Positions 7,500 to 57,102 of a stretch of 64,000 nt of DNA are shown one piece after another. Position numbers and translations under genes: made by a program. Source of the DNA: a virus. Taxonomy: Duplodnaviria; Heunggongvirae; Uroviricota; Caudoviricetes. The notes beneath the pieces are model-generated. The model did no database searches. It was given only the letters and a program-made list of their open reading frames with translations, and was not told the origin of the DNA. The stretch lies in IMG/VR virus record IMGVR_UViG_3300029969_000011. One strand, given 5' to 3'. Numbering within the stretch: position 1 is the stretch's first letter; each line of letters begins with the position of its first letter.

Positions 7500-7578
7500 T
7501 TCTTTCTCATTTTCTATATATATTATATCATAATATAAAAAAAAAGTCAAAGGTTTTTACGCCTTTGACTTTCATAAA
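7500..7578 (-). promoter_or_regulatory. fused intrinsic terminator + σ70 promoter cassette
   Basis: Minus-strand reads GAAAGTCAAAGGcgtaaaaaCCTTTGAC-T9 hairpin, then TGATATAAT extended -10. Confidence 0.6.
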
Positions 7579-9156
7579 TTAGTCTTCCTTCTTCTCGATT
7601 AACTTACTGCCGAGAACGCCACCGAGGATTGACTGAATGTCAATACCTGTTGAGCCCTTCAAGCCATCATTAACCTGATTGAGGGTTGTCATTATATCGC
7701 CTGTGAGCTTAGCTGTGTTACCTTCACCGTACATAGTGATTTTGTCAATCTGTGCCATAGGTGATGCGATTGCTCCAGCGATTGCAGGAAGCTGCTCGAA
7801 GTAAACCTTGAGTGCTTCAATCTGCATATCCATCTTAGCAGCGTCGCCGTACTGCTTCATAGCTTCAGCCTTCTTGAGGATACCCTCGGCTTCAGCCTCT
7901 GCCTTAGCAAGGAGAGCTGCCGCTTCAGCTTCACCCTTTGCCTTAATACCTGCTGCTTCAGCTTCCATAGCTGCCTGCTGTGCGAGAGCGGCTGCCTTAC
8001 GTGCCTCTGCCTTCTGCTGCTCTTCGTAAAGAGCTGCTTCTGCAGCGACCTTCTTAGCTTCTGCTTCACGCTCTGCCTGAACCTTCTGAGCCTCTGCCTG
8101 ACGCTCAATTTCGTTCTTCTTAGCTTCTGCTGACTTCTGACGCTCGAACAAGTCTGCTTCTGCCGCCTTCTGTGTTTCGATGAGACGAGCTTCAGCTTCC
8201 TGCTGTCTTGCGTACTTGTCTGCTTCTGCCTTCTTCTTGATTTCTGCTTCAAGAGCCTTCTCGGTGATGGCTACATTACGCTCCTTCAACTCGATTTCCT
8301 TTTCGAGCTTAGCAAGGTTTGCATCAGCGGTTGTAGTCTCAACAGTCTTACGCTGTTCCTGCTCCTGAATCTGGTATGCAGCGTCGGCTTCTGCCTTCTT
8401 GATGTCTGCCTGCTTCTTGAGTTCTGCCTTCTGAATAGCAAGCTCATTCTTCTTCTTAGCGATTTCTGTGTCTGCCGCAACCTGTGCATCGTTGGCATCC
8501 TTCTGTGCCTTAGCCTGAGCGATTGCGATTTCCTTTTCAGCATCTGCCTTAGCGATTGCCGCCTTCTTCTGAATCTTTACGGTATTGTCGATACCGAGGT
8601 TCTCGATAAGTCCCTGCTCATCAGAGAAATTCTGAACATTGAATGAAACAATTTCGAGACCCATAGCCCTGAAGTCAGGACCTGCATTTTCCGCAACCAT
8701 TTCTGCGAACTTCTTTCGGTCATTTACCATCTCTTCCAAGGTCATCTGACCGATGATTTCACGCATATTACCTTCAAGCACTTCTCGTGCTACCTTCGCG
8801 ATGTCTGTGACGTCCTTATTAAGGAAGTTCTCTGCCGCGATTGATAAAAGTTCTGGATTGCTGGATACCTTTACGTTTACATTACCATCAGCAATTACAT
8901 TGATGTAGTCTGCCGTTGGAACTGAGTTGGAAGTCTTTACGTCTATCTGAATTAACTGGAGAGTTAACTTATCCAATCTTTCGAGGAATGGAATCTTGAT
9001 AGATGACTTACCGATGACGGTCTTTTTACGAAGACCTGAGATGATGAATGCGGTGTCTGGCGGAGCCTTTACATAACCCGTCGCTATAATTACGATGAGT
9101 AAGATGATGGCGAGACCGCCGAGAATGAGTCCAAGATTAGCTAAAATTACTGACAT
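7579..9156 (-). CDS. flotillin-like SPFH/band-7 domain protein
   Basis: 525 aa; N-terminal TM, SPFH core, long Ala/Glu/Lys-rich coiled coil (EA repeats) typical of flotillin/YqiK. Confidence 0.65.
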   Translation of the reverse strand: MSVILANLGLILGGLAIILLIVIIATGYVKAPPDTAFIISGLRKKTVIGKSSIKIPFLERLDKLTLQLIQIDVKTSNSVPTADYINVIADGNVNVKVSSNPELLSIAAENFLNKDVTDIAKVAREVLEGNMREIIGQMTLEEMVNDRKKFAEMVAENAGPDFRAMGLEIVSFNVQNFSDEQGLIENLGIDNTVKIQKKAAIAKADAEKEIAIAQAKAQKDANDAQVAADTEIAKKKNELAIQKAELKKQADIKKAEADAAYQIQEQEQRKTVETTTADANLAKLEKEIELKERNVAITEKALEAEIKKKAEADKYARQQEAEARLIETQKAAEADLFERQKSAEAKKNEIERQAEAQKVQAEREAEAKKVAAEAALYEEQQKAEARKAAALAQQAAMEAEAAGIKAKGEAEAAALLAKAEAEAEGILKKAEAMKQYGDAAKMDMQIEALKVYFEQLPAIAGAIASPMAQIDKITMYGEGNTAKLTGDIMTTLNQVNDGLKGSTGIDIQSILGGVLGSKLIEKKED

Positions 9157-9183
9157 ATTTTTGTCCTCCTTAATATTTTAACA

Positions 9184-9363
9184 TCAGCCATCGCAGTGGT
9201 CTGGTGTTATTGTCAAGTTGCCTACGGCGAAGTTTCTCGCCACTCTGAGTGCCCGCTCTGTCTCTTCGAGCCGCTTTTCAAGTTCCCTTATATACGCGAC
9301 TGTTTGAGGCGGGCTGGTTTCAATCATTGTCTTGAGTTCCCAATCTGTTAACTTCTTATACAT
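9184..9363 (-). CDS. small hypothetical protein (59 aa)
   Basis: ATG 9361-9363, MYKKLTDWELK..., below ORF-track length cutoff. Confidence 0.3.
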   Translation of the reverse strand: MYKKLTDWELKTMIETSPPQTVAYIRELEKRLEETERALRVARNFAVGNLTITPDHCDG

Positions 9364-9541
9364 AGATTACATACACTCCATTCCTATGTTTTATTAGGTT
9401 TACTCTGCGTTGAGCATATTCAACCCATTGAGATTTATTTCCAACGGCGATGCCCTCAAAAAGAACATCGTCGTGAAAAGTCAAGCGGATACTTACTTCA
9501 GCGAAAGCTTCAAGAGCCGCTATTAGATTCTCCAGTGTCAT
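9356..9541 (-). CDS. hypothetical protein
   Basis: 61-aa ORF. Confidence 0.35.
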   Translation of the reverse strand: MTLENLIAALEAFAEVSIRLTFHDDVLFEGIAVGNKSQWVEYAQRRVNLIKHRNGVYVIYV

Positions 9542-9740
9542 TGTCGTACTCCTTTACGATTGTGACCATATCCTTATTAACGCCAGTCTTCATCACAAAG
9601 TCAGTAAGGATACCTTCGATAGTATTATCGAGTTCCTTTTCTGATTTAGCTGTAAGATATGTCCATGACTTATGCTCTGTATTGCCGCTGAGTCCTTCAG
9701 CGGAAGGAGCTGTGAATGTTACCTTTACATTAATATCCAT
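9510..9740 (-). CDS. hypothetical protein
   Basis: 76-aa ORF. Confidence 0.4.
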   Translation of the reverse strand: MDINVKVTFTAPSAEGLSGNTEHKSWTYLTAKSEKELDNTIEGILTDFVMKTGVNKDMVTIVKEYDNDTGESNSGS

Positions 9741-9751: not shown

Positions 9752-10684
9752 TTATCTGCTCTTAAGCATATCTCTTACGTATGTCATTGTAAGGCTACCG
9801 CAAATCTTACCAAAGTTCTCGCAAGCTGCGACTACCTCTGGCTCCTCCTTACGGCAATCCTCATACATCATCTTAGGAAGTACCTTTGCGATTGCTCCCA
9901 TATCGTGCTCGTCCCAATCAGGTCTAAGCTGACCCTCATCGACAAGCTTCTGAAGACACTTCTCAGTTCTACGAGCAGTTGCAACACTTGCTATGTACTG
10001 TCTCTCAGCCTCTCTCTTCTTGAGCTCCTCTGGGTCTACAGGCTTGTGATGGTCCTGATGAACCTCGGAAAACTTCTCTGCGACAATCTTAAGGTATGAA
10101 GGAGTTCTGCTGTTCTTGTTGTCAAGTCTGTCCTGAGACTTAATAACGACGCCCTCACCACAAGGCTCTGCGCCGAGCATAGACTGACCTACAAGCTGGT
10201 AAACAGTATCCCAACCTCTGAACTCACCTGTGTAGAAGATAGGAACAAAGTAGATTACCTGCTGAGTAAGCTGTACTGCGTTCTCAAGTCCCTTGAAGAT
10301 TGCGTATGTGTCCTCGTGAGGGAGGTACTCCTCTGTCTGAGTATCCCATACGTCGAACATATAGAAGTTCTTGTATCTGTTCTCAGGGTACTTGATTGTA
10401 TGCTTTGTAAGCCACTCGCCGAAGATTACATATCTGCCGTGCTGTGTAAGCATATCAATCTGAGAAACGTTGAGCTGCTGTGCCCAGTTCCAGAAACCGT
10501 TGAGTGTGTTAGCCTCATTAAGCTGGTTCTTACGAGAAAACGCAAGAACAGTATTTGTTGTGGGGTCATATGTGAATGATGCATTTGAGCCGTCAACCTT
10601 CTCGGTAATCGTTACCTGCTCACCGAGTGAAAAGACGGTATCATACTTCTCCTTGAAACGCTCGATATCTACATACTTTTTCAT
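9752..10684 (-). CDS. ATP-dependent RNA ligase (T4 Rnl2-like)
   Basis: 310 aa; N-terminus MKKY...; nucleotidyltransferase motif I TEKVDGSN (KxDG); size and layout like Rnl2. Confidence 0.65.
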   Translation of the reverse strand: MKKYVDIERFKEKYDTVFSLGEQVTITEKVDGSNASFTYDPTTNTVLAFSRKNQLNEANTLNGFWNWAQQLNVSQIDMLTQHGRYVIFGEWLTKHTIKYPENRYKNFYMFDVWDTQTEEYLPHEDTYAIFKGLENAVQLTQQVIYFVPIFYTGEFRGWDTVYQLVGQSMLGAEPCGEGVVIKSQDRLDNKNSRTPSYLKIVAEKFSEVHQDHHKPVDPEELKKREAERQYIASVATARRTEKCLQKLVDEGQLRPDWDEHDMGAIAKVLPKMMYEDCRKEEPEVVAACENFGKICGSLTMTYVRDMLKSR

Positions 10685-10749
10685 TTCTTTTTACCTCTTT
10701 CTCATTTTCTATATATATTATATCATAAAATATAAAAAATGTCAAATTT

Positions 10750-12004: not shown

Positions 12005-12120
12005 TTATTTTTCTCCTTTAACTGATTTTCTATATATATTATAACATAAAATAAGCGGAAAGTCAAATTTTTTATTGACTCTCCGCTTTTATAGTTAAAT
12101 ATTACGTTTCAGTTGTCGCG

Positions 12121-16346: not shown

Positions 16347-17828
16347 TTACTTCCAAGAATATACATCCTTAGAAAGTATCTTGACCATAGCCTCATAAGC
16401 ATTGCACTCGATGAGTTCTCTAAGGTCATTGAATGGACCTACACCAGAACCGCTGCAGTAACTGATGTTATCGTAGATAGTACCGATGTAGTTGTCCTGA
16501 CGTGCCTCAACATTCCAGCTTACGACCTTAGTCTCAGGGAGACCAGCCTCGCGAAGCTTCTTGTTCCACTTACCGACAATGGAGTCAGCAGTGTCTGGAC
16601 GTACGTCGTAGTCGAACTGACCGTCTGATATAACTACAAGAGCCTTTGGAACCTCGCGGGTTCTTACAGCAGTCTTATAGATAAGCTCGAAAGCCTTATC
16701 AAGGTTAGTGTTGTAACCCATGTCAGTTGACATTACCTTTCTAAGACACTCCTCAAGTCCCCAGCTATCCTCGAGGGATATGAAGTGAGGATTGTTAGTG
16801 AATGTCATATAAAGGTTGTGGTATGCACCCTTATTACGCTGAGCGAAGTAAGTTGCAAGACCAACAGAAGTTGCCATAGGCTGACCTAACATGGAGCCAG
16901 ATACATCTGCCATTACGACAACATCGTACTCTCCGCTAACGTAGTTAGGAAGAGCCTTCCACTGAGCTTCGTCTACAGGGTCAAGATGGTAACGAGAGCT
17001 ACCATACATATACTTGTACACGATGTCGTATGGGTAAAGAGTAGAAGCATTTACCTTAGCCTCGCCCTTTTCAAGGGAAGCCTTGTAAGCTGCAAATCTC
17101 TCCTGACAACGCTTGTTGTAAGTCTTGATATATCTGCTCATTGCAACAGATGGAACAGACTGGAAGTCTATCTCATCCCACTTACCAGCAGACATCTTTG
17201 TCTCGACGACGCCGATGTGTGCACGAAGCTTTGCAAGAGTCTTACGATATGTACGCTCGGTAAGACCGAGGTAACGACAAGCTCTACGACCAAGCTTACG
17301 AGTCTCCTGAGAAGAAGTATTGATAGATGGCATCCACTTAGCAAGGATGGAGATAGGCTGGTTCTTAGCCATACCCTCTGCATCAGCACGAAGCTGCTTG
17401 GAGATAAACTCCCATACCTTTGCCTCAATTACTGGATACTTTCCGTTAAGGAAGATGAAAAGGTCATCCCATCTACCTGTATCAACAATGGTCTGAAGAT
17501 TGCGGACAATCTTCTGAGGGTCGATACGACCGAGTTCTGCAAGCAGAATACGACCGATACGTCTCTCACCAAGACCACAGTCTCTGATGTTACGAGCGTA
17601 AAGGATAAGGTTATCTGCAAGAGTAGGGTTCTCCTGTCTTGCTGCCTTCCAATCGCTGATTATAGCGGAAGCATCTCTCTTTCTCATACCACCTATCTTT
17701 GCATAGATGTCAAGAAGAGCGCCGCCGTTTGTTGAACTATATGCGAGTCCACCGTTTTCGGTAAGTGTCTGATTAGCCATTGCCTTAGCTGCGTTTACGA
17801 AATTACTCATTACACATCTCTCCTTCAA
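16347..17828 (-). CDS. Ro60-like protein (TROVE-like helical N-terminal region + vWA domain)
   Basis: 493 aa; C-terminal vWA MIDAS VVVMADVSGSM (DxSxS); N-terminal ~300 aa helical region consistent with a TROVE module. Confidence 0.5.
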   Translation of the reverse strand: MKERCVMSNFVNAAKAMANQTLTENGGLAYSSTNGGALLDIYAKIGGMRKRDASAIISDWKAARQENPTLADNLILYARNIRDCGLGERRIGRILLAELGRIDPQKIVRNLQTIVDTGRWDDLFIFLNGKYPVIEAKVWEFISKQLRADAEGMAKNQPISILAKWMPSINTSSQETRKLGRRACRYLGLTERTYRKTLAKLRAHIGVVETKMSAGKWDEIDFQSVPSVAMSRYIKTYNKRCQERFAAYKASLEKGEAKVNASTLYPYDIVYKYMYGSSRYHLDPVDEAQWKALPNYVSGEYDVVVMADVSGSMLGQPMATSVGLATYFAQRNKGAYHNLYMTFTNNPHFISLEDSWGLEECLRKVMSTDMGYNTNLDKAFELIYKTAVRTREVPKALVVISDGQFDYDVRPDTADSIVGKWNKKLREAGLPETKVVSWNVEARQDNYIGTIYDNISYCSGSGVGPFNDLRELIECNAYEAMVKILSKDVYSWK

Positions 17829-18787: not shown

Positions 18788-18999
18788 ATTATCAAGATAC
18801 GTTTTTTTCTCGTGCCTCTGCCAATTGGGCTACTCCCCGATATGCTGCCCGAGACAGGAATCGAACCGTTACCCTCCGCCTTCTTCAGGCGGCGTGCACA
18901 CCTATGCACTACAAGGGCAGTCTGGTCGGGGAGGATGGGATTCGAACCCACACTCATCGTGCTCCTAACGCATTAATTGAGTAGCTGACGTATCTTTAT

Positions 19000-19075
19000 T
19001 GGTGCCGAGGGGGAGAGTCGAACTCCCTACGCCAAGCTCTTCAGGCTTGCGCTCTACCAGTTGAGCTACCTCGGC
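19000..19075 (-). tRNA. tRNA-Phe (GAA)
   Basis: Perfect cloverleaf: acceptor gccgagg/cctcggc, T-arm gggag-agtcgaa-ctccc, anticodon loop tcttcag (codon TTC), CCA encoded. Confidence 0.75.
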
Positions 19076-19208
19076 ATTATCAAGACAGTTATACTTATAA
19101 ACTCTACCCGTTGAGCTACGCGACGCGAACGCCACGGTGGGATTCGAACCCACATCCCCCTTTGTGCAAAAAAGAAAAAGTTTTAAGTGTTTTGCTGAAC
19201 TGCCTTAT

Positions 19209-19285
19209 TGGTCGGGGCGGTGGGATTCGAACCCACAGAATCGTGATTTTGAGTCACGCACGTTTACCAGTTACGTCACGCCCCG
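19209..19285 (-). tRNA. tRNA, anticodon CAA (Leu-type anticodon) with class I (short variable arm) body
   Basis: Perfect acceptor cggggcg/cgccccg, T-arm, D-arm acgt-ttaccagtt-acgt; anticodon loop ttttgag (codon TTG); 5-nt variable loop. Confidence 0.55.
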
Positions 19286-19412
19286 ATATAAAATGCAAAA
19301 TATGAAGAGGATACCACACCCTGCAGAGGCCCATATTTATTTATATCCCGCACCATAAGCTTCTTCGCGCTTCAATCCGTCGACTGTCCTCATGGCCATC
19401 CGTGCGGTTTTC

Positions 19413-19488
19413 TGGGTGGAAAGATGAGATTCGAACTCACACCTTCATGGGCCACAACCATGCGCTCTACCATTAAGCTACTCACCAC
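19413..19488 (-). tRNA. tRNA-His (GTG)
   Basis: Anticodon loop gccacaa (codon CAC); extra 5' G-1 and C73 discriminator + CCA characteristic of tRNA-His. Confidence 0.7.
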
Positions 19489-19595
19489 ATCAATTCCGAC
19501 TTTAACCCAAGTCGGCAGGGTTAAATAAAACCAAATCTGCCTCCACACAGTGGAGTTAGCTGTAGACAATAGCACTGAACATAACTATTCCTACT

Positions 19596-19671
19596 TGGTC
19601 TCGGTTATAGGACTCGAACCTATGACTTTCTCCTTGTAAGGGAGACACTCTCGCCGCTGAGTTAAACCGAG
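19596..19671 (-). tRNA. tRNA-Val (TAC)
   Basis: Perfect acceptor ctcggtt/aaccgag, T-arm atagg-actcgaa-cctat, anticodon loop ttgtaag (codon GTA). Confidence 0.7.
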
Positions 19672-19698
19672 ATTATCAAGACTCTCTATACCTTGCGG

Positions 19699-19772
19699 TT
19701 CCGGAAGGGGGATTCGAACCCCCATATGTACGATTTTAGGTCGTATGACTTAGCCACTTTGTCTATTCTGGA
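19699..19772 (-). tRNA. tRNA-like, anticodon region TAA with irregular loop (C33?)
   Basis: T-arm ggggg-attcgaa-ccccc, acceptor tccggaa/ttctgga; anticodon stem tacga/tcgta with loop ttttagg. Confidence 0.35.
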
Positions 19773-19920
19773 AAGGAATATTGCTGAAGAGTCTTTATTT
19801 GGTTCGGGTATGCTTATCGGAGTCAAGTACTCGCAGTTCCTCTTTCGAGGTATTTTCTTCGGAGTAAAGACCTTAAGGTTCGCGTAACCTCTCGTGCCCT
19901 AACCCATATCCGAAACCCGA

Positions 19921-19997
19921 TGGTGCCGTTAGAGGGACTCGAACCCACACTAACCAGTTCCTAAGACTGGCGCCTCTGCCAATTGGGCTATAACGGC
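19921..19997 (-). tRNA. tRNA, anticodon TAG (Leu-type anticodon) with class I, Gln-like body
   Basis: Perfect acceptor gccgtta/taacggc + CCA, anticodon stem ccagt/actgg loop tcctaag (codon CTA), 5-nt variable loop, 3-bp D-stem. Confidence 0.5.
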
Positions 19998-20061
19998 ATT
20001 GTTAAACAGTTCGAGTTACGGTCAAACTGAAGGTAAGCACCGATTAAGCAGCCAGATACTC

Positions 20062-20292
20062 CTATTCAGAATAATCAAGCTTTTCAATTCTTTTCATATC
20101 GGAATATGTAACCTGCTTCCAACCACTCTTAGGGTGGTTAAAGGCACACATCCAGCAGGAACAATGAATTTTACCTTTGGCTAACTTTCCGTCGCAATCA
20201 CAAAACCAATGATGAGTTTCATCAATGATATGTCTTTTGCGAGCTATGTGTTGTCTTCTCTGATAACGATAGTATGCTCTATCTCTTTCCAT
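20062..20292 (-). CDS. Arg-rich zinc-finger protein inside the tRNA array
   Basis: 76 aa; basic N-terminus, HxxxC...CxC...CxxC cluster. Confidence 0.4.
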   Translation of the reverse strand: MERDRAYYRYQRRQHIARKRHIIDETHHWFCDCDGKLAKGKIHCSCWMCAFNHPKSGWKQVTYSDMKRIEKLDYSE

Positions 20293-20432
20293 TGTGCCGC
20301 CCTCCGAAAAATTATAATAACGAATATAGGCAACCCACTACTTACTTTCCTTACCAGCGTAAATTAAGCACCTTCGCTACGTATTGCTACTACCTCAGTA
20401 TTTAATTTACTATGCCCTTCCCTCGATATTCG

Positions 20433-20975
20433 TTACTTAGTAATTCTGTTTGCGATACCAGAAGCAGCGTAGCTGTCTGGCTTGATAGCAACCTCGAAGC
20501 CGCAAGTCTTAATCCAAGAGGTAATCTCAGTAATAAGCTGATTTGTCTTACCTGCGTGACCAATGTCAGCGTGGACAGCGAAAGTAAATCTTCCGTCATT
20601 AGACATTTGCTCAAGGTCAATATCATAGTCGATAAGAGCATAAGCAAGAGCATCTACGAAACCTGTTGCGTTCTCAATAGAACGAGAAGTCTCTTCCTGT
20701 ATCTTAGTCTTAAGAACTCTTATCTTTGGTATATCTTGCTTGCGATAGAAGAAAATGCCGCCATCACCGATACGGTGAACAGCAATTACTTCCACCATTC
20801 TTGTGCACTTGTGGTTCTGGCTATCTGTACCCACAGTTATTTCGTATGAGGCGTTAGGTGCCTTTGCGATGTAGTCGGCTACAATAGAGCCTATCTGTGA
20901 ATAACGAACCTTCTCACCATTACCACGAGTAAATATCTTCTCGGTAATCACGGTTAATCTCTCCTTTATATTCAA
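20433..20975 (-). CDS. YkuK/DUF458-like RNase H-fold protein
   Basis: 180 aa; VGTDSQ and AVHADIGH motifs resemble the GTDSQ/HADSN signatures of the YkuK family. Confidence 0.4.
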   Translation of the reverse strand: MNIKERLTVITEKIFTRGNGEKVRYSQIGSIVADYIAKAPNASYEITVGTDSQNHKCTRMVEVIAVHRIGDGGIFFYRKQDIPKIRVLKTKIQEETSRSIENATGFVDALAYALIDYDIDLEQMSNDGRFTFAVHADIGHAGKTNQLITEITSWIKTCGFEVAIKPDSYAASGIANRITK

Positions 20976-21107
20976 ATATTCAAGACAGTTATGTTAGCTA
21001 CCTTTTGATTAAAATTCAAATGCTTTTAAAGAATTGCTGGACTGTCTTAGTGGTGATAATACGTGCCGCGGCACCACAGACCGCTATATGTGGTCGCACG
21101 TATTCTC

Positions 21108-21194
21108 TGGTCGGCTCGGTGGGACTCGAACCCACACGCCCTTGCGGGCACCAGCTCCTTAGGCTGGCGCGTCTGCCAATTCCGCCACGAGCCG
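21108..21194 (-). tRNA. tRNA-Leu (anticodon AAG), class II
   Basis: 87 nt; perfect acceptor cggctcg/cgagccg + CCA; long variable arm gccc-ttg-cgggc; anticodon loop tccttag (codon CTT). Confidence 0.55.
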
Positions 21195-21262
21195 ATTTAT
21201 CAAGACTCATCTTGTGTTTTTATATGCCCAAAAAACTTTCAGAGTTGCTGCTGAGTCTTATC

Positions 21263-21339
21263 TGGTCGGAGATGCGGGACTCGAACCCACGGCCTCTCGC
21301 TCCCAAGGCGAGCGCTCTACCAAACTGAGCTAATCCCCG
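21263..21339 (-). tRNA. tRNA-Pro (TGG)
   Basis: Anticodon stem ctcgc/gcgag, loop tcccaag (codon CCA); D-arm gctc-taccaaact-gagc; CCA encoded. Confidence 0.65.
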
Positions 21340-21409
21340 ATTAATTGGCGGCTTCAGGGACGCTACAAGATAACCAACCGCCAGAGTTATCACGCACTTA
21401 ATGTCCCAA

Positions 21410-21486
21410 TGGTCGGCGAGATGGGATTCGAACCCACACTGAATGGATTTTAAGTCCATTGCCTCTGCCTGTTGCGCTACTCGCCG
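21410..21486 (-). tRNA. tRNA, anticodon TAA (Leu-type anticodon) with class I body
   Basis: Perfect acceptor cggcgag/ctcgccg + CCA; anticodon stem atgga/tccat loop ttttaag (codon TTA); 5-nt variable loop. Confidence 0.5.
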
Positions 21487-21606
21487 ATAAGCCTATTAAA
21501 TAGGCTACAAGATATAACCCCTTTTACCGCGGGGCAGTCTCCCCAATATAATTGGTTGGGGAGATAGGAATTGAACCTACAAAAGTGAGTTGCTGATATA
21601 TCTTAG

Positions 21607-21683
21607 TGGTCACGCCAGCGAGGCTCGAACTCGCATTTTAGCCTTGAAAGAGCTACTTCCTACACCTGTTAGAAGATGGCGCG
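21607..21683 (-). tRNA. tRNA-Glu (TTC)
   Basis: T-arm gcgag-gctcgaa-ctcgc, anticodon loop ttgaaag (codon GAA), CCA encoded. Confidence 0.6.
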
Positions 21684-21835
21684 ATTCATCAAGATGTGCT
21701 TTTACCTCTCATGAGGATTTGAACCTTACCGTCCCCTTTTTGGGGCTGTGCTACCAGATTACACCATAACGCCGAGAGGATTTAAAATGGCGGCGTTAAA
21801 AACTTTAAAGAAAAAGTTGCTGACACATCTTTATT

Positions 21836-21909
21836 TGGTTGCGCAGACAGGACTCGAACCTATATCAACGGATAATGACTCCGTTATGCTACCTTTGCAC
21901 TACCGCGCG
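21836..21909 (-). tRNA. initiator tRNA-fMet (CAT)
   Basis: Anticodon loop taatgac (anticodon CAT); 5' CGCGCGG / 3' CTGCGCAACCA with C1·A72 mismatch, as in bacterial initiator tRNA. Confidence 0.6.
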
Positions 21910-22760
21910 TTCTCTTTATTTTCTATAATTATTATAGCATAAATTATAAAAAATGTCAAATTTTTGATTTCTAAGTCATTTCGTAAGCACTCTCACCGCG
22001 TGAAGGTAGACTTAATTGAGAGTATTTCTTCAACAATCTTGGGTGCCGCCACATCTCCTGCACACAGGAGACAGGGTACTCGAACCCCTCCATCGCCAGT
22101 TGCTGAAAGGAATTTCAACCTAATCTCATTAGTTATAAAGCCACTGAGCTGTAGCTATGCGAATAATTTGCCGCAATCAACGGGCGACTATTCTAATCGC
22201 CGTCATAACCAACACAAGTTATGAACCATTGTAATGTCGTCAGGTTCCCACACTTACGCAGTAAACGCGCCGCTTAACCACTTGGTTTAGGTATGTTCAT
22301 AACCAAGAAATTTTCCCTTTTACATCGTCAGCAGTAGATGTCGTAATTTTATCGGTACTTCCCCGAATGGACATTGCGTGCCTATCGTACTCACGGTAAT
22401 GTACGTAACCGCTGCCGTGCCAGCCAATACACGGATTTATACTGCCATCACACAGTCGGGCAGGTCTGTGATGGGTCTCTGCCCAATTTGGTTTTTGTGG
22501 TTTTAAACAGTCCAATGAGTAAACCTCAACTCAACTGTAGAGAATATTTGGTGGTTCGCTCTCTCTCAGCGAAGGTGTAAAGGGAGTTTAAACCACTTCC
22601 TCGTGGGGTTTTAACGTCTTTTCCTTGACAAGTCTCGCCGCAACCAGTACCATTTAAGGTACGCCAATCACTACGGGTTGCACATCCTTACTTTACCTGC
22701 CCAACAGGTCGGCGGTTGGACCCGCCAGTGTCCCTTTTATTCTCTTTAAGTAATTGGCAA

Positions 22761-22835
22761 TGGTGTGGGATAGGAGAATCGAACTCCCACCGCCTGTTTG
22801 GAAGACAGGAATACTGACCGTTATACGAATCCCAC
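22761..22835 (-). tRNA. tRNA-Gly (TCC)
   Basis: Perfect acceptor gtgggat/atcccac + CCA; anticodon stem cctgt/acagg, loop ttggaag (codon GGA). Confidence 0.65.
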
Positions 22836-23045
22836 ATTAGTTCTTATTTTTAAGTATAATTTATTATAACATATTCTAAGAAAAAAGTCAAATTTTTAAT
22901 AGTGATTGTCTTTGTAGGGGTCTGTCTTCTTCTTATCATGGGTTGCGGCGATGATGTCTGGCATAACCTCTATGAGCTTCCAAAGAAGTACGGTTACGCA
23001 AACAACTATTAGGTACTGCATCAGACAGACCTCCTTTCAAGACAT

Positions 23046-23120
23046 TGGTTTCTCCGCTTGGATTCGAACCAAGGAATGGCAGTTTTAGAGACTGCTGTCT
23101 TAAGCCTCTTGACGACGGAG
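23046..23120 (-). tRNA. suppressor tRNA, anticodon CTA (reads TAG); tRNA-Gln-like body
   Basis: Perfect acceptor ttctccg/cggagaa + CCA; T-arm cttgg-attcgaa-ccaag; anticodon stem gcagt/actgc, loop tttagag = C-U-CUA-A-A; 3-bp D-stem, variable loop CATTC as in E. coli tRNA-Gln. Confidence 0.7.
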
Positions 23121-23125
23121 AATTA

Positions 23126-23201
23126 TGGTTGCCGCTCTGGGAATCGAACCCAGTAAGACGGAGTTAGAGTCCGTTGTCCTCGCCAACTAAACGAAGCGGC
23201 A
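23126..23201 (-). tRNA. second suppressor tRNA, anticodon CTA (reads TAG)
   Basis: Perfect acceptor tgccgct/agcggca + CCA; T-arm ctggg-aatcgaa-cccag; anticodon stem acgga/tccgt, loop gttagag (anticodon CUA); 3-bp D-stem. Confidence 0.65.
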
Positions 23202-23342
23202 AAATTCTCCAAGACGCCTTTACATTTACCTTTTAAACATTTTAAGTGTTCTATTGTAAGAAATGATTGCAGGATGCGTCTTTCATTCTTATAAAATAAT
23301 TATAACATATTTTATAAAAATTGTCAAATTTTTGAGTGCTTA

Positions 23343-23606
23343 TTAGTCTACAGCAGTTGTAGTAGTTGTCTCTGTTGTAGTCTCTTCTGCCTCAGTTTCT
23401 GTGGTAGTAGTTGTTTCTTCGGTAGCCTCAGTTGTCTCCTCTGCTACTGTTGTAGCTTCAGTTGTTTCAGCTTCTGTTGTTTCAACTTCTGTTGTAACTA
23501 CTGTTGTGGTTTCACTGTTGCTTCCGCTATCCTTTGATGTATCGCAAGAAACAAAAGTTACAGCCATAGCGCCTGCCATAAGACAAGCTAAAATAGCCTT
23601 CTTCAT
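23343..23606 (-). CDS. small secreted lipoprotein, Thr/Glu-rich
   Basis: 87 aa; signal peptide + TFVSC lipobox-like; (ETT)n low-complexity tail; located inside tRNA array. Confidence 0.45.
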   Translation of the reverse strand: MKKAILACLMAGAMAVTFVSCDTSKDSGSNSETTTVVTTEVETTEAETTEATTVAEETTEATEETTTTTETEAEETTTETTTTTAVD

Positions 23607-23949
23607 TGTGTTTCACCTCTTTGCTTTTTAAATAAGAACCCTTGCTTGTATATCGAAACCTCGTATTATATCCACAGTCACATCGTGATTTACTCCCACA
23701 CAAGAGGGCTACCATGGAGAAGGGGCACGCCCCGAGATGGGCGGCAATAATCATAGAACGCTATACGAAAAGCATAACGTACTAAGGAACTCTTTCCACA
23801 CGTGGTGGATGAGCTATCGTATTTCTACGACCCCGCACAGCGGGTAGAAGTCATAATGACCTCTTAACAGTAATTTTGATTGAGCCGCGTTTCCTCTTTT
23901 AAGTCTGACTAACTGCGGTAAAAAATCCAGACTTCAAAATTACTTTTAA

Positions 23950-24043
23950 GAAATCATTATGGCGCGGTCGGGGAGACTCGAACTCCCACACCGATTGCTC
24001 GATTACTCATAGTTTAGCAAACTACTGCCTTACCAAATTAGGC
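23950..24043 (-). tRNA. tRNA-Ser (GCT), class II
   Basis: CCA + G73; perfect acceptor gcggtcg/cgaccgc; long variable region; anticodon loop ttagcaa (codon AGC). Confidence 0.5.
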
Positions 24044-24188
24044 TTACGACCGCATTATCAAGATACGTTTTTTCGATATACGTTGTTCTACCAGTTGAAC
24101 TACTCCGCCATATTGGCGACGGAGGCAGGACTTGAACCTACACCTACGGCGTGATAGGCAATCTATTGCTTGCTGACGTATCTTAGTT

Positions 24189-24266
24189 TGGTGTGCCTGA
24201 TGGGACTCGAACCCATGACCCCCTGATTAAAAGTCAGGTGTTCTATGCCAACTGAACTACAGGCAC
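24189..24266 (-). tRNA. tRNA-Lys (TTT)
   Basis: Perfect cloverleaf; acceptor gtgcctg/caggcac; anticodon loop ttaaaag (codon AAA). Confidence 0.75.
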
Positions 24267-24366
24267 ATTAACATCCGCTGAGCATCTTATTGGAACGCTT
24301 TCACCATGCGAGACCTCTATTGTTTATTTGCTGGCAGAATTTGAACCATTAACCATAGCGAATATT

Positions 24367-24442
24367 TGGTGGGACGCCTGAGATTCGAACTCAGATAAGC
24401 TCGGTTATGAGCCGAGTGCACTAACCATTGTACTAACGTCCC
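24367..24442 (-). tRNA. elongator tRNA-Met (CAT) or tRNA-Ile2 (CAT, lysidine)
   Basis: T-arm ctgag-attcgaa-ctcag; anticodon stem ctcgg/ccgag, loop ttatgag (anticodon CAT). Confidence 0.6.
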
Positions 24443-24490
24443 ATTAAAGAAAGGAAAGGGGCATACTTTCAAGATGGCTATGCCAGACCA

Positions 24491-24564
24491 CTAAGTTATT
24501 GGCTTCGGCAAAGGGAGTCGAACCCCTATCAACAGAGCCAAAATCTGTTGTCCTACCATTAGAC
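24491..24564 (-). tRNA. tRNA-Gln (TTG)
   Basis: G73 + CCA; anticodon stem acaga/tctgt, loop gccaaaa (codon CAA); 3-bp D-stem GTC/GAC. Confidence 0.65.
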
Positions 24565-24601
24565 GATACCGAAATCTATGGAGTCATAAAGACTCCAAAT
24601 A

Positions 24602-33253: not shown

Positions 33254-33643
33254 TTATCCCTTTCTGATGTTATATCCATACTGGTCGGAGTGATAAAATT
33301 CTATCCAGTATTTTTCTTTTTCGGTCTGTTCTTCTTTTGGGCAAACCTCTACGATTTCCCAAGTGAAGTTCTCCAAACCTTCTTTGAACATAGCGTCATA
33401 GATTTGACCAGCTATTCGTTCAATATTACAGCCGCGCTTAGCATGGGTACGCCAACGGTCTATAAACTTTGTTGTTTTACCAATATAAACTTTTTCATCA
33501 TTTATATTAGTAATCTTATAAATGCCGCCCTTATCTTTCTTGTCACCAAGAACTCGTTTAAAGAGCTCCTCTATTTGAGTTTTATAGTAAGTCTCATATA
33601 GGAGTTTATAAAAGATTTCTGGACGGGAGAAGCCAGGTGCCAT
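33254..33643 (-). CDS. GIY-YIG homing endonuclease (possibly the C-terminal part of a TAG-readthrough fusion starting at 34285)
   Basis: GIYKITNINDEKVYIGKT...R..H, catalytic E near the end; no RBS at its ATG and the frame stays open upstream through three TAGs to ATG 34285. Confidence 0.55.
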   Translation of the reverse strand: MAPGFSRPEIFYKLLYETYYKTQIEELFKRVLGDKKDKGGIYKITNINDEKVYIGKTTKFIDRWRTHAKRGCNIERIAGQIYDAMFKEGLENFTWEIVEVCPKEEQTEKEKYWIEFYHSDQYGYNIRKG

Positions 33644-34285
33644 AGACTTTAACTTAGCTATATCTGAAAGAGTTAAAGTATCGAGAGTAATGTGATAGAA
33701 GTCGCGTTGCTTACGAACTTCCTCATCTTTCTTAAACTAAGCTACGATTGCCGCCTGTCTTTGTTCAAAGGCTTTAATTTCTTCAGTCAACGCCGCCTTT
33801 TTCAAATTTATTTCGTCGCTGAACGTCTAAAAATTTACAGCCAACTGCTCCTTATCTTTCTCATATTGAGCCTGAACACCAGCTATCTTCTTTTCTCGTT
33901 CTGCTGTCGCCGCGGCAACGATTTCAGCATTTTCTTTTTGACGCTCAAGTTCAGCTTCCCTATCCATTTTAGCATACTCTTCACGAGTTGCTATATATTG
34001 TGCGTCAAGTCTTTGTACATCGGTATTATATTGAGCTTTCTTCTCTTCGAGCATACAGGTGTATTCTCTTAATGATGCCTGTTTTCCTGCAATCTCCTTT
34101 TGGATTTCATCCGTCATTTCCTTGACGGCGGCATCTTTCTTCTCAATAAGTCCTTTCTTAACTTTCTCCTATTCGGAAGAAAACTTTAGCTTACCTTTAA
34201 GAGACTTAACCGATAGAATATCGCAGACGGCATATGTAATGCCGCCACACACGATACCAAGTAATATGACCAATATCCATATCAT
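33644..34285 (-). CDS. TM + coiled-coil protein interrupted only by TAG codons
   Basis: ATG 34283-34285 with AGGGGTG RBS; MIWILVILGIVCGGITYAVC TM then coiled coil; TAGs at about 34169, 33827 and 33737 are the only stops; contains ORF 33827..34117. Confidence 0.4.
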
Positions 34286-38819: not shown

Positions 38820-38885
38820 TCATACCTCTCCTCCAATTTGATTACTGTAAACATTATACCACAAGAAAAAGAAAAAGTCAATCAT

Positions 38886-40703: not shown

Positions 40704-41807
40704 TTAAACTGGTTCGTTGTATATAAATTCTGTTAATGAATTGCCATTATAAATAACTTCTGTCATTTGATTTCCGTCATAATAAAATGGAACACCAGTT
40801 GGAGGTGGTGGCGGATTTTCTGGTATATCAAGCATAACTGGAATATACGGGAATCCGTTATTTCTGTTCGGGTCAATGTGCCAATCTGTTGTTGCAGCTG
40901 AGTCAGTGCTGATTATGAAACCTTTGCTGTCAAGGTCGCTTTTGGACTTCATTTCTATTGTAGTTGCGCCAATTGTGCCTGTAGGTAATGTACCGCTGTA
41001 TTTATCAGTATTAACTAAGACGGAACTCATTTGTCCATAGTCCAAACGGAATCCGCCGGAAATATCGGCATTTATAACAGTCTTTTGAAAAGTAGTAATA
41101 TAAGAAAATCCAGCTATACCAGATACGTTACCTTCAATATAACAATAGTAAAAAGCACCATATAACTCATAATCATTGTTTTCATAGGTTGCACGAATAT
41201 TACAATATCTAATTCCAGCTTGCCAGTTCACTCCATTTGTAATCGAGCCGTCACCATTAAATGTTAGATTAAAACTACATACATCGATATATCCTAACAT
41301 ATATGTAACGTCAATTATAGCATTATATTCTTGACCAACAGAATATTTCTAAGCTGCTTCAAGACTACCTAAAAAACGACAATACCTTATAAAAGTTCCA
41401 CTACCAGAAGTTTGTGCTGAAGCCAATAATGCCACCGAAGCTCTCTATGAAGTATTTCCAGTCATATGTGCTGCAACACCATTAGAATCGACTATGAAAT
41501 CAATGAAATCAAGATATTCAACTCGACCACTGGCTTCATGTCCAGAAATTATAAATCCATAGTAGCTATAAGTGCCTGAAGTATTAGTAACTTTGGCATT
41601 TTTTATCTACCAGCCATTACCGTTGATAAATCCACGCAGCGGTATGTTATGCACTTCTCCATCTGTGTAGTAGTCACGCATATCAAATACGCCGCCACCC
41701 TCTGGTAATTCAGTATACTTATTATCTGCTGTGGTGCATTGTAGAAATTCTTCCCAAGTCGTAGGCTTGTAAGGGTCTGCAGATGTGCCGCTGCCCGTTA
41801 TCGCCAT
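40704..41807 (-). CDS. tail-associated structural protein with in-frame TAG codons
   Basis: Frame-2 ORFs 40704..41300 and 41607..41807 joined across TAGs; ATG 41805-41807 with GGAGGTGG RBS overlapping the TAA of the upstream fibre gene (TAATG). Confidence 0.45.
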
Positions 41808-44800
41808 TAATTTCCACCTCCATCGACAAAGTACATAATACCAGGTTCAGTTGCTTCAGAAGCAGACTAAACAACTTGAATTGGAATTTGAGTTAATAAT
41901 GCTTTGAGTGCTTCAAGCTATTTGAAACTAAATGATATTTCTTCATTAGTATTTGGATTACTTAAAGTAATACCACTTTCACCGCCTACCACTTCTGCTT
42001 TAATTCTAATACCATTATATAATCTAAATTCTGAATCATCAGTAATTTCTACAATAGGATTATTAGCATAGCTATTCAAGTGAGCATTACTATTATAGTA
42101 ATATCTATATACTATTGTAATAGAATCGTTAGAATTTAAAATAATACTCTCATACTGGTCAACAATCTATCCACTTAAGAAAGTTTCAAAATCAGCATAG
42201 TCAGCACCTGCTTCAAACTGTTTAATAAATTCATATTTATCAGTTAAATCATAAGTCTCAGTAGGAGTAAAAGTATAGCTCAAATGAGAATATGCTCCTT
42301 GGCTCCAACCTTCTCTAAGTACACAGTTAACAGGTCCGTATGCCTGAATAATTGGAGACTAATCCCAAGTCTCAGTACCAACTCTATCTGCTGTTTGAAT
42401 TGGACGATACCATTCTTTACCTAAATGTTGTGCCGCGCCCTAATATACAGAAGTTGTTGCTACTTTGTATCTTGGATGTTCTGCCGCATCATAGGTTCCT
42501 GTTTCTGCATTAGAGAAATCATAAGCTCCTACATTATAAGGTTTAGAAGAACTCTGATTTAAGAAGGTTTGAATATCTTCTGGTAAATCAGCATAAGGAG
42601 TATTAGGATAATTAAGTTTGTAATCAGTAGTATTATTTACAGTATTTTTAACTAAATAACTGTCGTATTCTGCAATAAAATTCTTTACCTTATAATAATA
42701 GTATCCATATCTTTGCTGATAATAAGTAACTGTACAATTAGTTCCAGCAACAACTCGGTCACATTTAAAAGCATTTCTAAAGAATGCTTGTACTTTACTA
42801 TTATTAAAGAAAGTGCTTGCGCTGGTTGATATATATGAATCAATATAAACTGTATATTCAGAAGAAACTAAATCTTTAACATTTTTAACTTCAAGTGACT
42901 CAATGTACTCATATAAGCTAACTTCAGACCAAGAAGTGTAAGCATTTTTTAATACTATCTGATAATTACTATTATCTTCTCCTCCTACTATATTACGGAC
43001 TCCCTTCTTAATGCCTGCTTCCGCACCGCTCATATTAGAAGAGCCTATATATTTATAAATATAATCCTTTTTATCAGTAACAGTATGAGTTTTTGTAATT
43101 GTTATATTAGTAATATCCAAATAATATGAACCTAAATAATAACGATATGTTGTAGAACTACCAGAATAACGTGATAATTGAGCATCTGATTTAAGGGTAA
43201 GAGCAAAATTATTTCCGTATCCAAAAGTATCTCTTATCCAGTCTTTAAATTCTTGTGACTATACTAATGTACTTTCCGTATAATAAGTATTAGAATTAAA
43301 ATACTAAGTTGTATTCCAGTTAATTATTTTAACATTATTAATTGTTAAAGTTTCTGTATATTTTATTGGAAGTTTTGTTTTAGATGTTCCAGTAAATCTA
43401 TTCCAAGTGTAATCATCATTATGAGGGTCGCCATTTGGTAGAGTAGTTGCATTTTTTAATTCAGTCGCAAATTGAGTTTCAATATCAGAAGTTGACATAT
43501 TGCTTAAATCAGTATCAACAACAATTTCGCCCTAAACAGAAATTTCCTTAGTTGTTTCATACATTTTTGGATAATGCTCATATTTAGTTCTACTATACTT
43601 TTCAGCTACAGGATTGACTTCGCTATTTCTTAAAATTACAGTACCGCTCCAAGACTCTAAATGAGTATTGCCGTCAATCTAAATAAAAGAATCATTACCT
43701 TCAAATATTCCCTTAAATCTATCCCATTGACAAATAATCTCACTATGTTTTGGTTCTACTGTTAAACCAAAAGCATACTTAGGGTCAAATTTAATTGCTG
43801 TAGTTCCACTTGGTTCAAAAAAGATAGAAGTCTCTGCAGAACTATCTGGACCAAATCGGAAATATGTACTACTTCCGTCATTAGGAACAATGTCTCCAAT
43901 AAGTTTAGAATTTCCTCCAATTCCATATTTAATTTGAGTTGTACTATTTCCACCACAAGAAGCTACAATACCAATAGTAGAACTATCTCTTGTTGCTAAT
44001 TGCATACCCAATCTACCTGATTCTGAAGAACAGATATGCATACTAACAGGTCCTTCATAAGCAACTAAAGGATAACCTATATACTTTTTCATTATATTTA
44101 AATCATCAAACTTAGTATTTATACTACAATGAGGATGGTCATAATCAAAAGTTCCAATCTAACTATGTTCAATACAGTTAGCTCTTGTACTATAATCTAC
44201 CCAACTACCATTAAAGAAAATATTTGAACTACCATCCCATCCATCATGGTCTTTTCCATTAGTAATGGCACCACTACCAAAAACCATCTGTCCTCTATCG
44301 ACAGAAACACAAGCAGGAAATTCTTCAGTACCTCTCATTCTTACCATAGACCCTGGATGAATATAAACTTGGGTTCTGTAACCTTCCTATAATTTAATTC
44401 CATGATTAGTATCGTGATATCCATTAGAATACTGACCACCATTAATATGAATATCAGCATTACCAGATAAAATTGCTGTCGCATTATTTCTCATTTGTAA
44501 AGTAGCTCTTTCATAAATAGAAACTGTTGCTCCGTCATGAATTTGGAGTATAGGAGAATTATCATTATCTCTGCCACTAAAAGGATTAATATACTTTCTA
44601 ATATCTTCTCTGTCGGGATGAGCCTATCCAAGCCAATAATTAGGTCCTGGATTAGCATACATATCAATTAAACAGTTACCTCTCATTGAAATAGCCGGAG
44701 TGCTACGAGGGTCTGCTCCGCCAAGCATTTCAATTTTTGCAGTTCCTTTAATTTTAATAGTAGGGCTTGTCAAAGTTTCTTCAAAGTCTTCTCCGCCCCA

Positions 44801-45358
44801 CCATTTTATACCACTATATACAGTTTCTTTTGTGCCTATTTCAATTTTTGAGTCTCCATAAATTTTAGCTATAGCAGAATCTGCACTGCTAAAACCATTT
44901 TTTAAATAGGTAATTGGATAATTAAACACGCCCTAAGTTGAGGCAGGTTTTATTGTACCAAAAGCGGTTTCAAATGGAGGTCCTTCAATCATTCCAATTC
45001 CGAAATAAGTTGGTGAAGGAGTTACTCCACCTGTCACAGGAGTTATATTATTATCTTTCCAAAATGGCATACTATAAAGATTACAGTCATTTCCTTTTGC
45101 CCATTCTTTAGGTTCAACATTTCCAGTTCCAGTAAGTAACTGAGAGTAGCTTGCCTTAATCGGAGGAACATCTGCTCCGAGTGGATAAAACCGCTCAGTT
45201 TCAATGTCATAGCGATAAGGGATATTTGTTTCTTCGACTATATATAAATGGTTCTCTTTCTTATCGGTTAAATCGAAAAGGTCTTCATAGGCATAGACAG
45301 TAGTTACGTCATCTTCTGCTGCACCGAAAGGAATCCCATTACGAAATATAATTCCCAT
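41807..45358 (-). CDS. large tail fibre / receptor-binding protein (about 1183 codons) with many in-frame TAG codons
   Basis: Six frame-1 ORF fragments (42440..43120 to 44933..45358) separated only by TAG; hand translation of 41807-42440 shows only TAG interruptions ending at TAA 41807-41809; N-terminus MGIIFRNGIPFGAAEDD paralogous to the gene at 47565. Confidence 0.5.
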
Positions 45359-45435
45359 TTATTATGACCTCCTATCATAGTGTGCCGCCCCTCAGATTTT
45401 TAGAAGGGCGGCGCATTTAATTTATATTATTCTCT

Positions 45436-47565: not shown

Positions 47566-47958
47566 TAAGTATCAACCTCCTCTTCTGCATCAGGGTCGAA
47601 TTCGGGGTGGTCTTCCTAATAAGCTGCGACAAGTTTATCATACTTAGTCATTAATTCATTTACTTTGTTAAGTAAATATTCAACAGCATCAGAAAACTCT
47701 ATATCTGTAACAAAGAATATTTGGTCTTTGTACTAATTCATAAAGTCTGGCTGTTCAGCGAGAGCAACATAATCATCCCAGGTTATGTCCTACTCATGCA
47801 TTTTACGCTGTTCATTTGCCATTTCCTTTGCACCTCCGTACAATTTGTTTTCTACATAATAAAGTAGAGATTTGAGTCGAAACGTCTAATCCTTTACTTA
47901 TTGATATTATAGCATAAAAATAGAGAGAAGTCAAGTGTTGACTTCTCTCTTTTTAATA

Positions 47959-55717: not shown

Positions 55718-55762
55718 CTGCTGACCGCTTGAAGGAAGATTACTTGAACTTGAAAGCTCTCC

Positions 55763-57075: not shown

Positions 57076-57102
57076 ATGAAAATAAAAAATGAGGTGAAGA
57101 AA

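Follow-up and report, generated by a model that had tools for sequence, protein, structure and literature searches.

A flotillin of the bacterial FloT/YqiK type encoded as an accessory gene by a TAG-recoding gut phage

Introduction

What a bacteriophage gains from carrying a flotillin is the question raised by the locus described here. What bacterial flotillins do physiologically remains under debate, and a flotillin that strong purifying selection has preserved in dozens of lineages of large gut phages has to earn its keep in the course of one infection cycle, so that the question of flotillin function is narrowed and becomes testable. The gene concerned lies on a 64,000-nucleotide stretch of DNA from a member of the Caudoviricetes (IMG/VR record IMGVR_UViG_3300029969_000011), referred to below as the window. 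An initial annotation, made from the letters alone, had read the open reading frame (ORF) at positions 7579-9156 as a phage-encoded flotillin and had suggested that it could remodel host membrane microdomains in assembly, lysis timing or superinfection exclusion. The ORF encodes an intact flotillin of the FloT/YqiK type found in bacteria and is an accessory gene of a TAG-recoding gut phage. The interpretation put forward here, which we hold to be somewhat more probably right than wrong, is that its product acts early, as a membrane-scaffold cage by which the membrane of the host is organised or stabilised.

The finding is useful rather than startling, since annotations of SPFH/flotillin genes exist for a few phage genomes, where their role was called unclear by the authors (PMC13239085, PMC13384950, PMC3220722). 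These include proteins of Xanthomonas phage X1, as well as a 263-amino-acid (aa) protein of Vi01-like phages and an SPFH-like lipoprotein of a Schitoviridae phage, the latter two not being full flotillins. Literature searches found no functional study of a phage-encoded flotillin. The value of the present case is comparative, in that it brings out a phage subfamily that is coherent, has been maintained for long, is marked by a diagnostic insertion and shows expression signals of the early type. It also extends the list of host-like functions found in TAG-recoded gut phages, the hosts and biology of which are mostly unknown, by a membrane scaffold.

An intact flotillin of the FloT/YqiK type

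The initial annotation described a 525-aa protein with an N-terminal membrane anchor, an SPFH (band-7) core and a long coiled coil rich in Glu and Ala, and all of these features were recovered. The ORF has exactly this length from ATG to TAA, and residues 8-26 (LGLILGGLAIILLIVIIAT) form the sole strongly hydrophobic segment of the protein, with a Kyte-Doolittle mean of 2.93. The Lys and Arg residues that follow this transmembrane helix suggest that the body of the protein is cytoplasmic. The Band_7 domain of Pfam (PF01145) was matched over residues 36-208 with E=5.7e-22 and 79 bits against a cut-off of 23.6, and the Flot domain (PF15975) over residues 410-482 with 29.5 bits against a cut-off of 27. 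Between them, residues 195-450 consist of 28% Ala, 16% Glu and 16% Lys, and the AlphaFold2 model of the protein places two very long helices here (residues 184-283 and 288-463), which are the counterparts of the wall and roof helices of SPFH cages. The sublineage to which the window belongs carries two extra segments of 11 and 18 residues (29 residues) within this helical region.

The likeness to the FloT and YqiK proteins, also proposed at the outset, extends well beyond the coiled coil. Human flotillin-1 and flotillin-2 were matched with E-values from 7e-59 to 9e-52 and with both halves of the protein covered, the flotillin-1 alignment (E=7e-59) consisting of one stretch at residues 32-324 in the SPFH half and another at residues 383-509 in the C-terminal half. 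Because the SPFH match is strong and both halves are aligned, the similarity does not stem from the low-complexity coiled coil alone. The NCBIfam model for FloT (NF058507) gave 274.6 bits and E=1.8e-81, which is below its equivalog cut-off of 700 bits, and the phage protein is thus a homologue of FloT and a member of its family that should not itself be named FloT. The best match among the PHROGs was weak (phrog_200, 'lipoprotein', E=6e-4), so that this collection holds no flotillin-type family that is well matched by the phage protein.

Structural comparison points in the same direction. The AlphaFold2 model of the monomer has a mean predicted local distance difference test score (pLDDT) of 67 and a predicted template modelling score (pTM) of 0.32, the SPFH core reaching pLDDT values of 80-90; for an obligate oligomer that is predicted as a monomer, low values are no surprise. 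In Foldseek searches of the PDB with this model, chains of the flotillin complex (9l3g, 9bq2) ranked first (E of about 2e-20, 30% identity, about 490 columns), followed by HflK/C, erlin, prohibitin, stomatin, QmcA and major vault protein; the predicted SPFH fold superimposed on the Band 7 domain of mouse flotillin-2 (1win) with a template modelling score of 0.75 when normalised to the target.

Two sets of known proteins are most informative for comparison. The chromosomal flotillins of Lachnospiraceae, of the FloT (YuaG)/YqiK type, share the same end-to-end architecture and 56-61% identity with the phage protein, which differs from bacterial flotillins by a 7-residue insertion ahead of the motif YFEQLP (lacking in 76 of 78 bacterial copies) and by the 29 additional helix residues. 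The eukaryotic flotillin-1/2 complex is the best match among solved structures in both sequence and fold, being collinear with the phage protein at about 30% identity and including the C-terminal region. Eukaryotic flotillins are attached to the membrane by a hairpin and by acylation. They lack a transmembrane helix and form a hetero-oligomer, whereas the phage flotillin has a transmembrane helix and a longer helical region, and since the phage encodes a single flotillin a homo-oligomer is to be expected. Overall, the protein is a conventional member of its family, in a setting that is uncommon yet has precedents.

A coherent and long-maintained phage subfamily

Within a large protein collection, near-identical copies of the flotillin (97-98%) are followed by a graded series of relatives down to 60-67% identity. 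Seven representatives were examined for genomic context, and all were found on phage-like contigs of 60-187 kb, among neighbours that include RNA ligases, kinases, TROVE-like proteins, homing endonucleases, a Mu-F-like head protein, Macro proteins, ADP-ribosylglycohydrolase and NADAR. The closest of the context-checked relatives (86% identical) share the operon of the window, and the gene order of the window recurs in independent assemblies of 165-187 kb and in one IMG/VR contig, all from different samples. The best matches from bacteria and archaea, taken at one genome per species, are 52-61% identical and belong nearly all to Lachnospiraceae.

A neighbour-joining tree of 204 sequences contains a clade of 110 members that includes all eight phage copies with verified context and no copy from a bacterial genome. 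When the data set was reduced, essentially all bootstrap replicates contained a split with the phage copies on one side and 29 of the 30 sampled bacterial copies on the other. The exception is a bacterial lineage consisting of L067 and its sister L078, the flanks of which (Tex, glycosidases, a histidine kinase) are plainly bacterial. The 7-residue insertion, QIEALKV at residues 445-451 of the window's protein, lies within the C-terminal domain and follows the same division, as it is present in all 110 members of the phage clade, in a few basal IMG/VR copies and in two of 78 bacterial copies, which are again L067 and L078; it is absent from the other 76 and from human flotillin-1. Strict monophyly of the phage copies was considered and rejected, the rooted test having failed in 99 of 100 bootstrap replicates on account of the L067/L078 lineage. 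The claim made here is accordingly that of a coherent phage subfamily, and not of a proven single transfer. An 11-residue insertion that had seemed phage-specific in a small alignment was not upheld in the large one and was dropped.

Pairwise ratios of nonsynonymous to synonymous substitution rates (dN/dS) among the phage flotillins were 0.03 (for a pair that is 99% identical), 0.09, 0.06-0.08 and 0.12-0.16, and at greater distances between phage lineages the synonymous sites are saturated. Purifying selection acts on all domains of the protein, which has been retained across deep divergence. Taken together, the low ratios and the saturated synonymous sites indicate that the flotillin is functional in phages and has been so for a long time. 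The parsimonious interpretation of these comparisons is that the gene was probably captured from a Lachnospiraceae-like bacterium of the Clostridia, and, with the nearest bacterial copies in Lachnospiraceae, the likely hosts of the phage are Clostridia.

The phage that carries the gene

Genes up to about 56 kb of the window are nearly all on the minus strand. Matches to Pfam and PHROG families include an RNA ligase, a polynucleotide-kinase-like ATPase, a TROVE/vWA protein, a helicase, a thymidylate synthase, a DNA ligase, metallophosphatases and a collagen-like tail-fibre protein. A cluster of tRNA genes contains two adjacent candidates for amber suppressors (Table 1), and many of its other members have anticodons for A-ending codons (Lys-ttt, Gln-ttg, Glu-ttc, Leu-taa). 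When TAG is read as a sense codon, with Gln assumed as the amino acid inserted, fragmented ORFs on the minus strand at 40704-56419 fuse to proteins of 1183, 709, 1120, 411 and 880 aa; together with two shorter ones (367 and 227 aa) these make seven genes with 55 in-frame TAGs, and the share of coding sequence goes up from 0.73 to 0.88. An endolysin is encoded by one of the fused ORFs. The phage thus recodes TAG in its late genes, a pattern described for structural and lysis genes of gut phages (bioRxiv 10.1101/2021.08.26.457843).

The tRNAs, the phage gene content, the TAG-recoded endolysin and the context shared by several independent assemblies support the view that the window derives from a large gut phage and that the flotillin is encoded by it, as had been stated in the initial annotation. 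A megablast comparison of the first 25 kb of the window with deposited phages gave tRNA-sized matches only, so that there is no close cultured relative.

Transcription unit and expression signals

The flotillin gene appears to be the last of a five-gene unit that has a consensus promoter at its head and a hairpin terminator at its end, the other members being an RNA ligase gene and three small ORFs (Table 1). The small ORFs, of 76, 61 and 59 aa, were considered as flotillin partners and rejected: homologues of the 76-aa and 59-aa ORFs are detectable in the related phage locus L101, which has the same operon layout and no flotillin, and they are therefore not flotillin-specific partners.

The promoter pattern TTGACW-N14-16-TGNTATAAT occurs 17 times in the window, compared with 0.01 occurrences expected by chance, and 15 of the 17 lie on the minus strand within 1-39 kb, with just one inside the TAG-recoded region. 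As a side observation, these extended -10 promoters are near-identical to one another and have a T-rich spacer, and almost all of them fall in the region of 1-39 kb that uses the standard code.

Two classes of codon usage can be recognised, one at 1-40446 and the other at 40704-56419. The flotillin gene is extreme in the first, with no CAA and 32 CAG codons for Gln, and 2 AAA and 57 AAG codons for Lys. The same bias is seen in the RNA ligase gene (CAA/CAG 0/17, AAA/AAG 1/23) and in the TROVE-like gene (0/14 and 0/35), and G-ending codons for Gln, Lys and Glu are almost exclusive in an early-region subset made up of the flotillin, RNA ligase, TROVE-like, kinase and metallophosphatase genes. The TAG-recoded genes favour the A-ending codons CAA, AAA and GAA, which match the tRNAs of the phage itself. 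On the grounds of the consensus promoter, the lack of an in-frame TAG, the TAA stop codon and the G-ending codon usage, we infer that the flotillin would be expressed early, by the host polymerase and host tRNAs, before or independently of a suppressor-dependent late programme.

Prevalence, accessory status and gene neighbourhood

The initial annotation had called flotillins rare in phages, which holds for deposited phage records and needs amendment in view of IMG/VR. A tblastn search found a flotillin match in 8 of 50,697 deposited phage records, several of these 8 being short fragments (1.4-4 kb) or unverified, and the lack of a flotillin-type PHROG agrees with this. A profile-guided scan found a full-length relative in at least 94 IMG/VR contigs, most of them of 90-250 kb, and the IMG/VR contigs and other loci together form 34 lineages at 90% identity. 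With the TROVE-like gene as an anchor, one of 80 viral IMG/VR loci has a flotillin within 10 kb, on which basis the flotillin was rejected as a core gene of this phage group. Among phages as a whole the flotillin is thus rare; large gut phages carry it recurrently, as an accessory and not a core gene.

L101 (17202-21464) provides a close comparison. Its TROVE-like protein is 74% identical to that of the window and its RNA ligase and small-ORF operon is the same, and unrelated small ORFs together with a 159-aa ORF occupy the place of the flotillin. The window and L101 form a natural presence/absence pair. By eye, the 159-aa ORF resembles the Macro-like cluster of flotillin neighbours described below.

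The ORFs within 6 kb of the flotillin were clustered for 87 loci of the 34 lineages. No neighbour was found in more than 12 lineages, none of the recurrent ones was a membrane protein, and no lysis or structural gene was among them. The recurrent neighbours (seen in L181-L259 within 6 kb) are two metallophosphatase families in 12 lineages each, a kinase-like ATPase in 11 and Macro proteins in 7. Proteins like NAD (nicotinamide adenine dinucleotide) synthetase and like nicotinamidase/isochorismatase were noted near the flotillin in the same loci, by eye only, and genes for ADP-ribosylglycohydrolase and NADAR were noted near it in L096 and L097. Judged from their predicted families, the recurrent neighbours are auxiliary or counter-defence-type in character, and the neighbourhood looks like an NAD/ADP-ribose counter-defence set.

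A further observation concerns a homologue of the major vault protein, about 830 aa long, which is encoded 0.5-3 kb downstream of the flotillin in 7 of the 34 lineages (MVP_shoulder E=2.9e-23, Vault_3 E=2.4e-9; Table 1); such a gene was looked for in the window and none was found. Major vault proteins of phages have been reported in a preprint, without mention of flotillin (bioRxiv 10.1101/2023.11.10.566534).

One complete gut phage genome of 151 kb, csAssE-Sib (OR575929.1, L099), carries an annotated 'flotillin family protein' of 566 aa with Band_7 and Flot domains. It is 28% identical to the flotillin of the window and differs in context, being placed beside replication genes and directly after an annotated transmembrane protein of 164 aa, and may have been acquired independently, along with a partner of its own.

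Possible functions of the phage flotillin

Solved members of the SPFH families (flotillin-1/2, HflK/C, prohibitin, stomatin, erlin and QmcA) all form closed rings or domes on membranes, and a homo-oligomeric cage on the cytoplasmic face is for that reason expected of the phage flotillin. In the mechanism favoured here, the host RNA polymerase would transcribe the gene from its consensus promoter early in infection, and host tRNAs would translate it before suppression of TAG permits the structural and lysis proteins to be made. By analogy with the solved relatives, the protein would then probably build a ring or dome of large size that sits on the host membrane at its cytoplasmic face and fences off a membrane patch. 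The benefit would most likely be that the membrane stays organised, fluid and intact while a large phage passes through its long latent period; it might extend to withstanding premature failure of the membrane or membrane-attacking suicide effectors of the host. Membrane protection is favoured on account of the expression class, the lack of lysis and structural genes and the presence of auxiliary or counter-defence genes among the neighbours, and published links of bacterial SPFH proteins or dynamin to membrane protection, including protection in phage infection (PMC8844932, PMC8581546).

Several points weigh against this interpretation. The oligomer is predicted from solved relatives, and the model at hand is a monomer with a pTM of 0.32. 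The timing is read from promoters, coding and codon usage only. The flotillin is dispensable for close relatives, as seen from L101 and from the single positive among the 80 TROVE-anchored loci, and in the 34 lineages no conserved membrane-protein partner or client gene stands beside it. Bacterial systems such as the YuaF-FloT and QmcA-YbbJ pairs include an adjacent gene of the NfeD family, whereas no Pfam match to NfeD was found upstream of the phage flotillins in the window, L001, L004 and csAssE-Sib; the one Lachnospiraceae copy examined (L020) likewise showed no NfeD-like neighbour when its flanking ORFs were read by eye, without a Pfam search. PADLOC models at E<=0.01 gave no match for the flotillin and seven other ORFs of the region, so that the tie to defence or counter-defence comes from the neighbourhood alone. 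Finally, the tree is distance-based, with genomic context verified for eight copies of the 110-member clade, and the phage-type insertion is also present in the bacterial L067 and L078, so that any direction or number of transfers read from it is provisional.

A broader proposal, which is tentative and rather speculative, is that large TAG-recoded gut phages deploy SPFH-type cages of their own to build or protect a membrane domain in the infected cell. Such cages would act early, either in counter-defence, by keeping the membrane energised in the face of membrane-attacking suicide effectors of the host, or as a platform on which replication or assembly takes place. All flotillin-bearing lineages would then use the flotillin for this purpose, and some would add the major vault protein homologue encoded nearby. 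If true, such cages would represent a cellular scaffold of a new, phage-made class, and a prokaryotic flotillin would for the first time have a selective function assigned to it.

Superinfection exclusion, one of the roles suggested initially, would have an early flotillin cage sequester or block host components that a second phage needs for entry of its DNA, or block adsorption signalling, and in this way shield the infected cell from competitors. The membrane anchor and the early-type expression signals would suit such a role, the presence of the gene varies among relatives as is often the case for exclusion and other accessory genes, and the 263-aa SPFH/Band 7 gene of Vi01-like phages adjoins an annotated superinfection exclusion gene (PMC3220722). 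However, known exclusion proteins include no flotillin, the phage flotillin has neither a partner gene nor a receptor-like gene linked to it, and its deep retention under strong purifying selection on all domains is likelier for a housekeeping scaffold than for an arms-race gene; this role is considered improbable.

It is also unlikely that the flotillin serves to enclose or recruit a host membrane protease or other complex, in the way that HflK/C surrounds FtsH, and so to alter the stability of host or phage proteins such as regulators of division, sporulation or stress. The HflK/HflC-FtsH assembly of Escherichia coli is a membrane-anchored cage with an SPFH fold and a helical wall, it is among the fold matches of the phage protein (7wi3, 7vhq, 9cz2), and it has a historical tie to phage biology in that HflK/HflC controls the stability of the cII protein of lambda. 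In Bacillus subtilis, FloT and FloA interact with FtsH and their over-production changes division and differentiation, and the likely hosts of the phage are Clostridia. On the other hand, HflK/HflC is a host protein of a different SPFH subfamily, with 15-17% identity to the phage flotillin in fold alignments, and the score with the hflC model was 17 bits, the cut-off being 134.4. There is no evident FtsH-like partner here, the window has no linked protease gene, and a ClpP-like gene lies near the flotillin in one relative only.

Interference with a host flotillin is more doubtful still. Here the phage protein would co-assemble with the flotillin of the host and, having helices of a different length, would distort or poison the host cages, as might be imagined from its high identity to Lachnospiraceae flotillins (57-62%) and from the 7-residue insertion and the 11- and 18-residue helical segments of the window's lineage. 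Yet every domain is under purifying selection and contains invariant columns, which fits a protein that assembles properly by itself, and the 7-residue insertion also occurs in L067 and L078, which are normal bacterial chromosomal copies.

Lysis timing, in which the flotillin as a membrane scaffold would organise or restrain rafts of holin and so set the moment of lysis, was likewise raised in the initial annotation and is the least supported of the functional readings. The endolysin, which is the one lysis gene that can be recognised, lies in the TAG-recoded region at a distance of about 43 kb, the flotillin lies in an early-type standard-code unit with a host-type promoter, early-type codon usage and no TAG, and no lysis gene recurs among its neighbours in the 34 lineages, all of which makes this role very unlikely. 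An artefact or passenger, be it DNA of the host that was joined to a phage contig by misassembly or a recent capture without a role, could be suspected from the high similarity to Lachnospiraceae genes and from the fragmentary (1.4-4 kb) or unverified state of several of the 8 deposited matches, but it is most improbable, given that the gene recurs within this operon in assemblies that were made independently from different samples, has the phage's own types of promoter and terminator and its early-gene codon usage, and shows dN/dS values of 0.03-0.16 with synonymous sites saturated between phage lineages.

Other features of the window

The positions of the flotillin gene, its parts and the other features mentioned are collected in Table 1.

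Table 1. Features of the flotillin locus, of the rest of the window and of related loci. Positions are those of the window unless another record is named.
Feature	Position	Strand	Basis and remarks
Flotillin-family coding sequence	7579-9156	-	525 aa, ATG to TAA, 0 in-frame TAG
Ribosome-binding site AAGGAGG	9165-9171	-	8 nt 5' of the flotillin ATG, read from sequence
Single N-terminal transmembrane helix (membrane anchor)	codons 4-27 = 9076-9147	-	Kyte-Doolittle; model helix 8-25
SPFH / Band_7 domain	codons 36-208 = 8533-9051	-	Pfam PF01145
Ala/Glu/Lys-rich long helices	codons 184-463 = 7768-8607	-	composition and AlphaFold2 model
Flotillin C-terminal domain	codons 410-482 = 7711-7929	-	Pfam PF15975
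Putative consensus host-type promoter, head of flotillin unit	10717-10745	-	TTGACA, 17 nt, TATAAT, TG extension; 12/12 matches
RNA ligase, first gene of flotillin unit	9752-10684	-	PF09414, E=8e-28
Three small ORFs (76, 61, 59 aa) between RNA ligase and flotillin	9184-9740	-	ORF calls; no family match
Intrinsic-terminator-like hairpin	7542-7573	-	12-pair stem, 8-nt loop, then T run; 6 nt past flotillin stop
Next putative promoter, same type, starting the following unit	7522-7550	-	TTGACT, 17 nt, TATAAT, TG; overlaps terminator tail
Examples of the promoter motif	12-40, 2535-2563, 7522-7550, 10717-10745, 12038-12066, 21931-21959, 38853-38881, 59353-59381
Cluster of 19 tRNA genes	18844-24573	-	two adjacent tRNAs with anticodon CTA
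CTA-anticodon (amber suppressor) tRNAs	23046-23122, 23126-23201	-	labelled 'Pyl' by ARAGORN
TROVE/vWA-like protein	16347-17828	-	DUF2828 E=1.9e-32, DUF7788, vWA
Endolysin, one fused ORF with five TAGs	51684-52919	-	phrog_15001, E=3.8e-83; readable only with TAG as sense
csAssE-Sib flotillin locus	L099 3399-5626		164-aa annotated transmembrane protein directly precedes flotillin; no Pfam match for it
Major vault protein homologues	L096 12375-14876, L097 11467-13962, L098 10548-13034, L189 8059-10560

The TROVE/vWA-like protein has what we take to be a Ro60-like architecture. Its gene sits among genes for the RNA ligase and for kinase-like and nucleotidyltransferase-like proteins and near the tRNA cluster, surroundings that suggest an RNA-repair module, and its homologues are frequent in viral contigs, with at least 461 IMG/VR loci.

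An ORF at 33254-34285 on the minus strand, in which three TAGs are read through, combines an N-terminal hydrophobic segment and a long charged helical region with a C-terminal GIY-YIG homing-endonuclease domain (phrog_314, E=1.9e-18), and may be either a real fusion or an artefact of joining two ORFs. At about 56500-58000 the coding strand and the GC skew both change sign, with minus-strand genes and negative skew before this region and plus-strand genes and positive skew after it, and the switch may mark the place where divergent modules meet, or else a landmark of replication.

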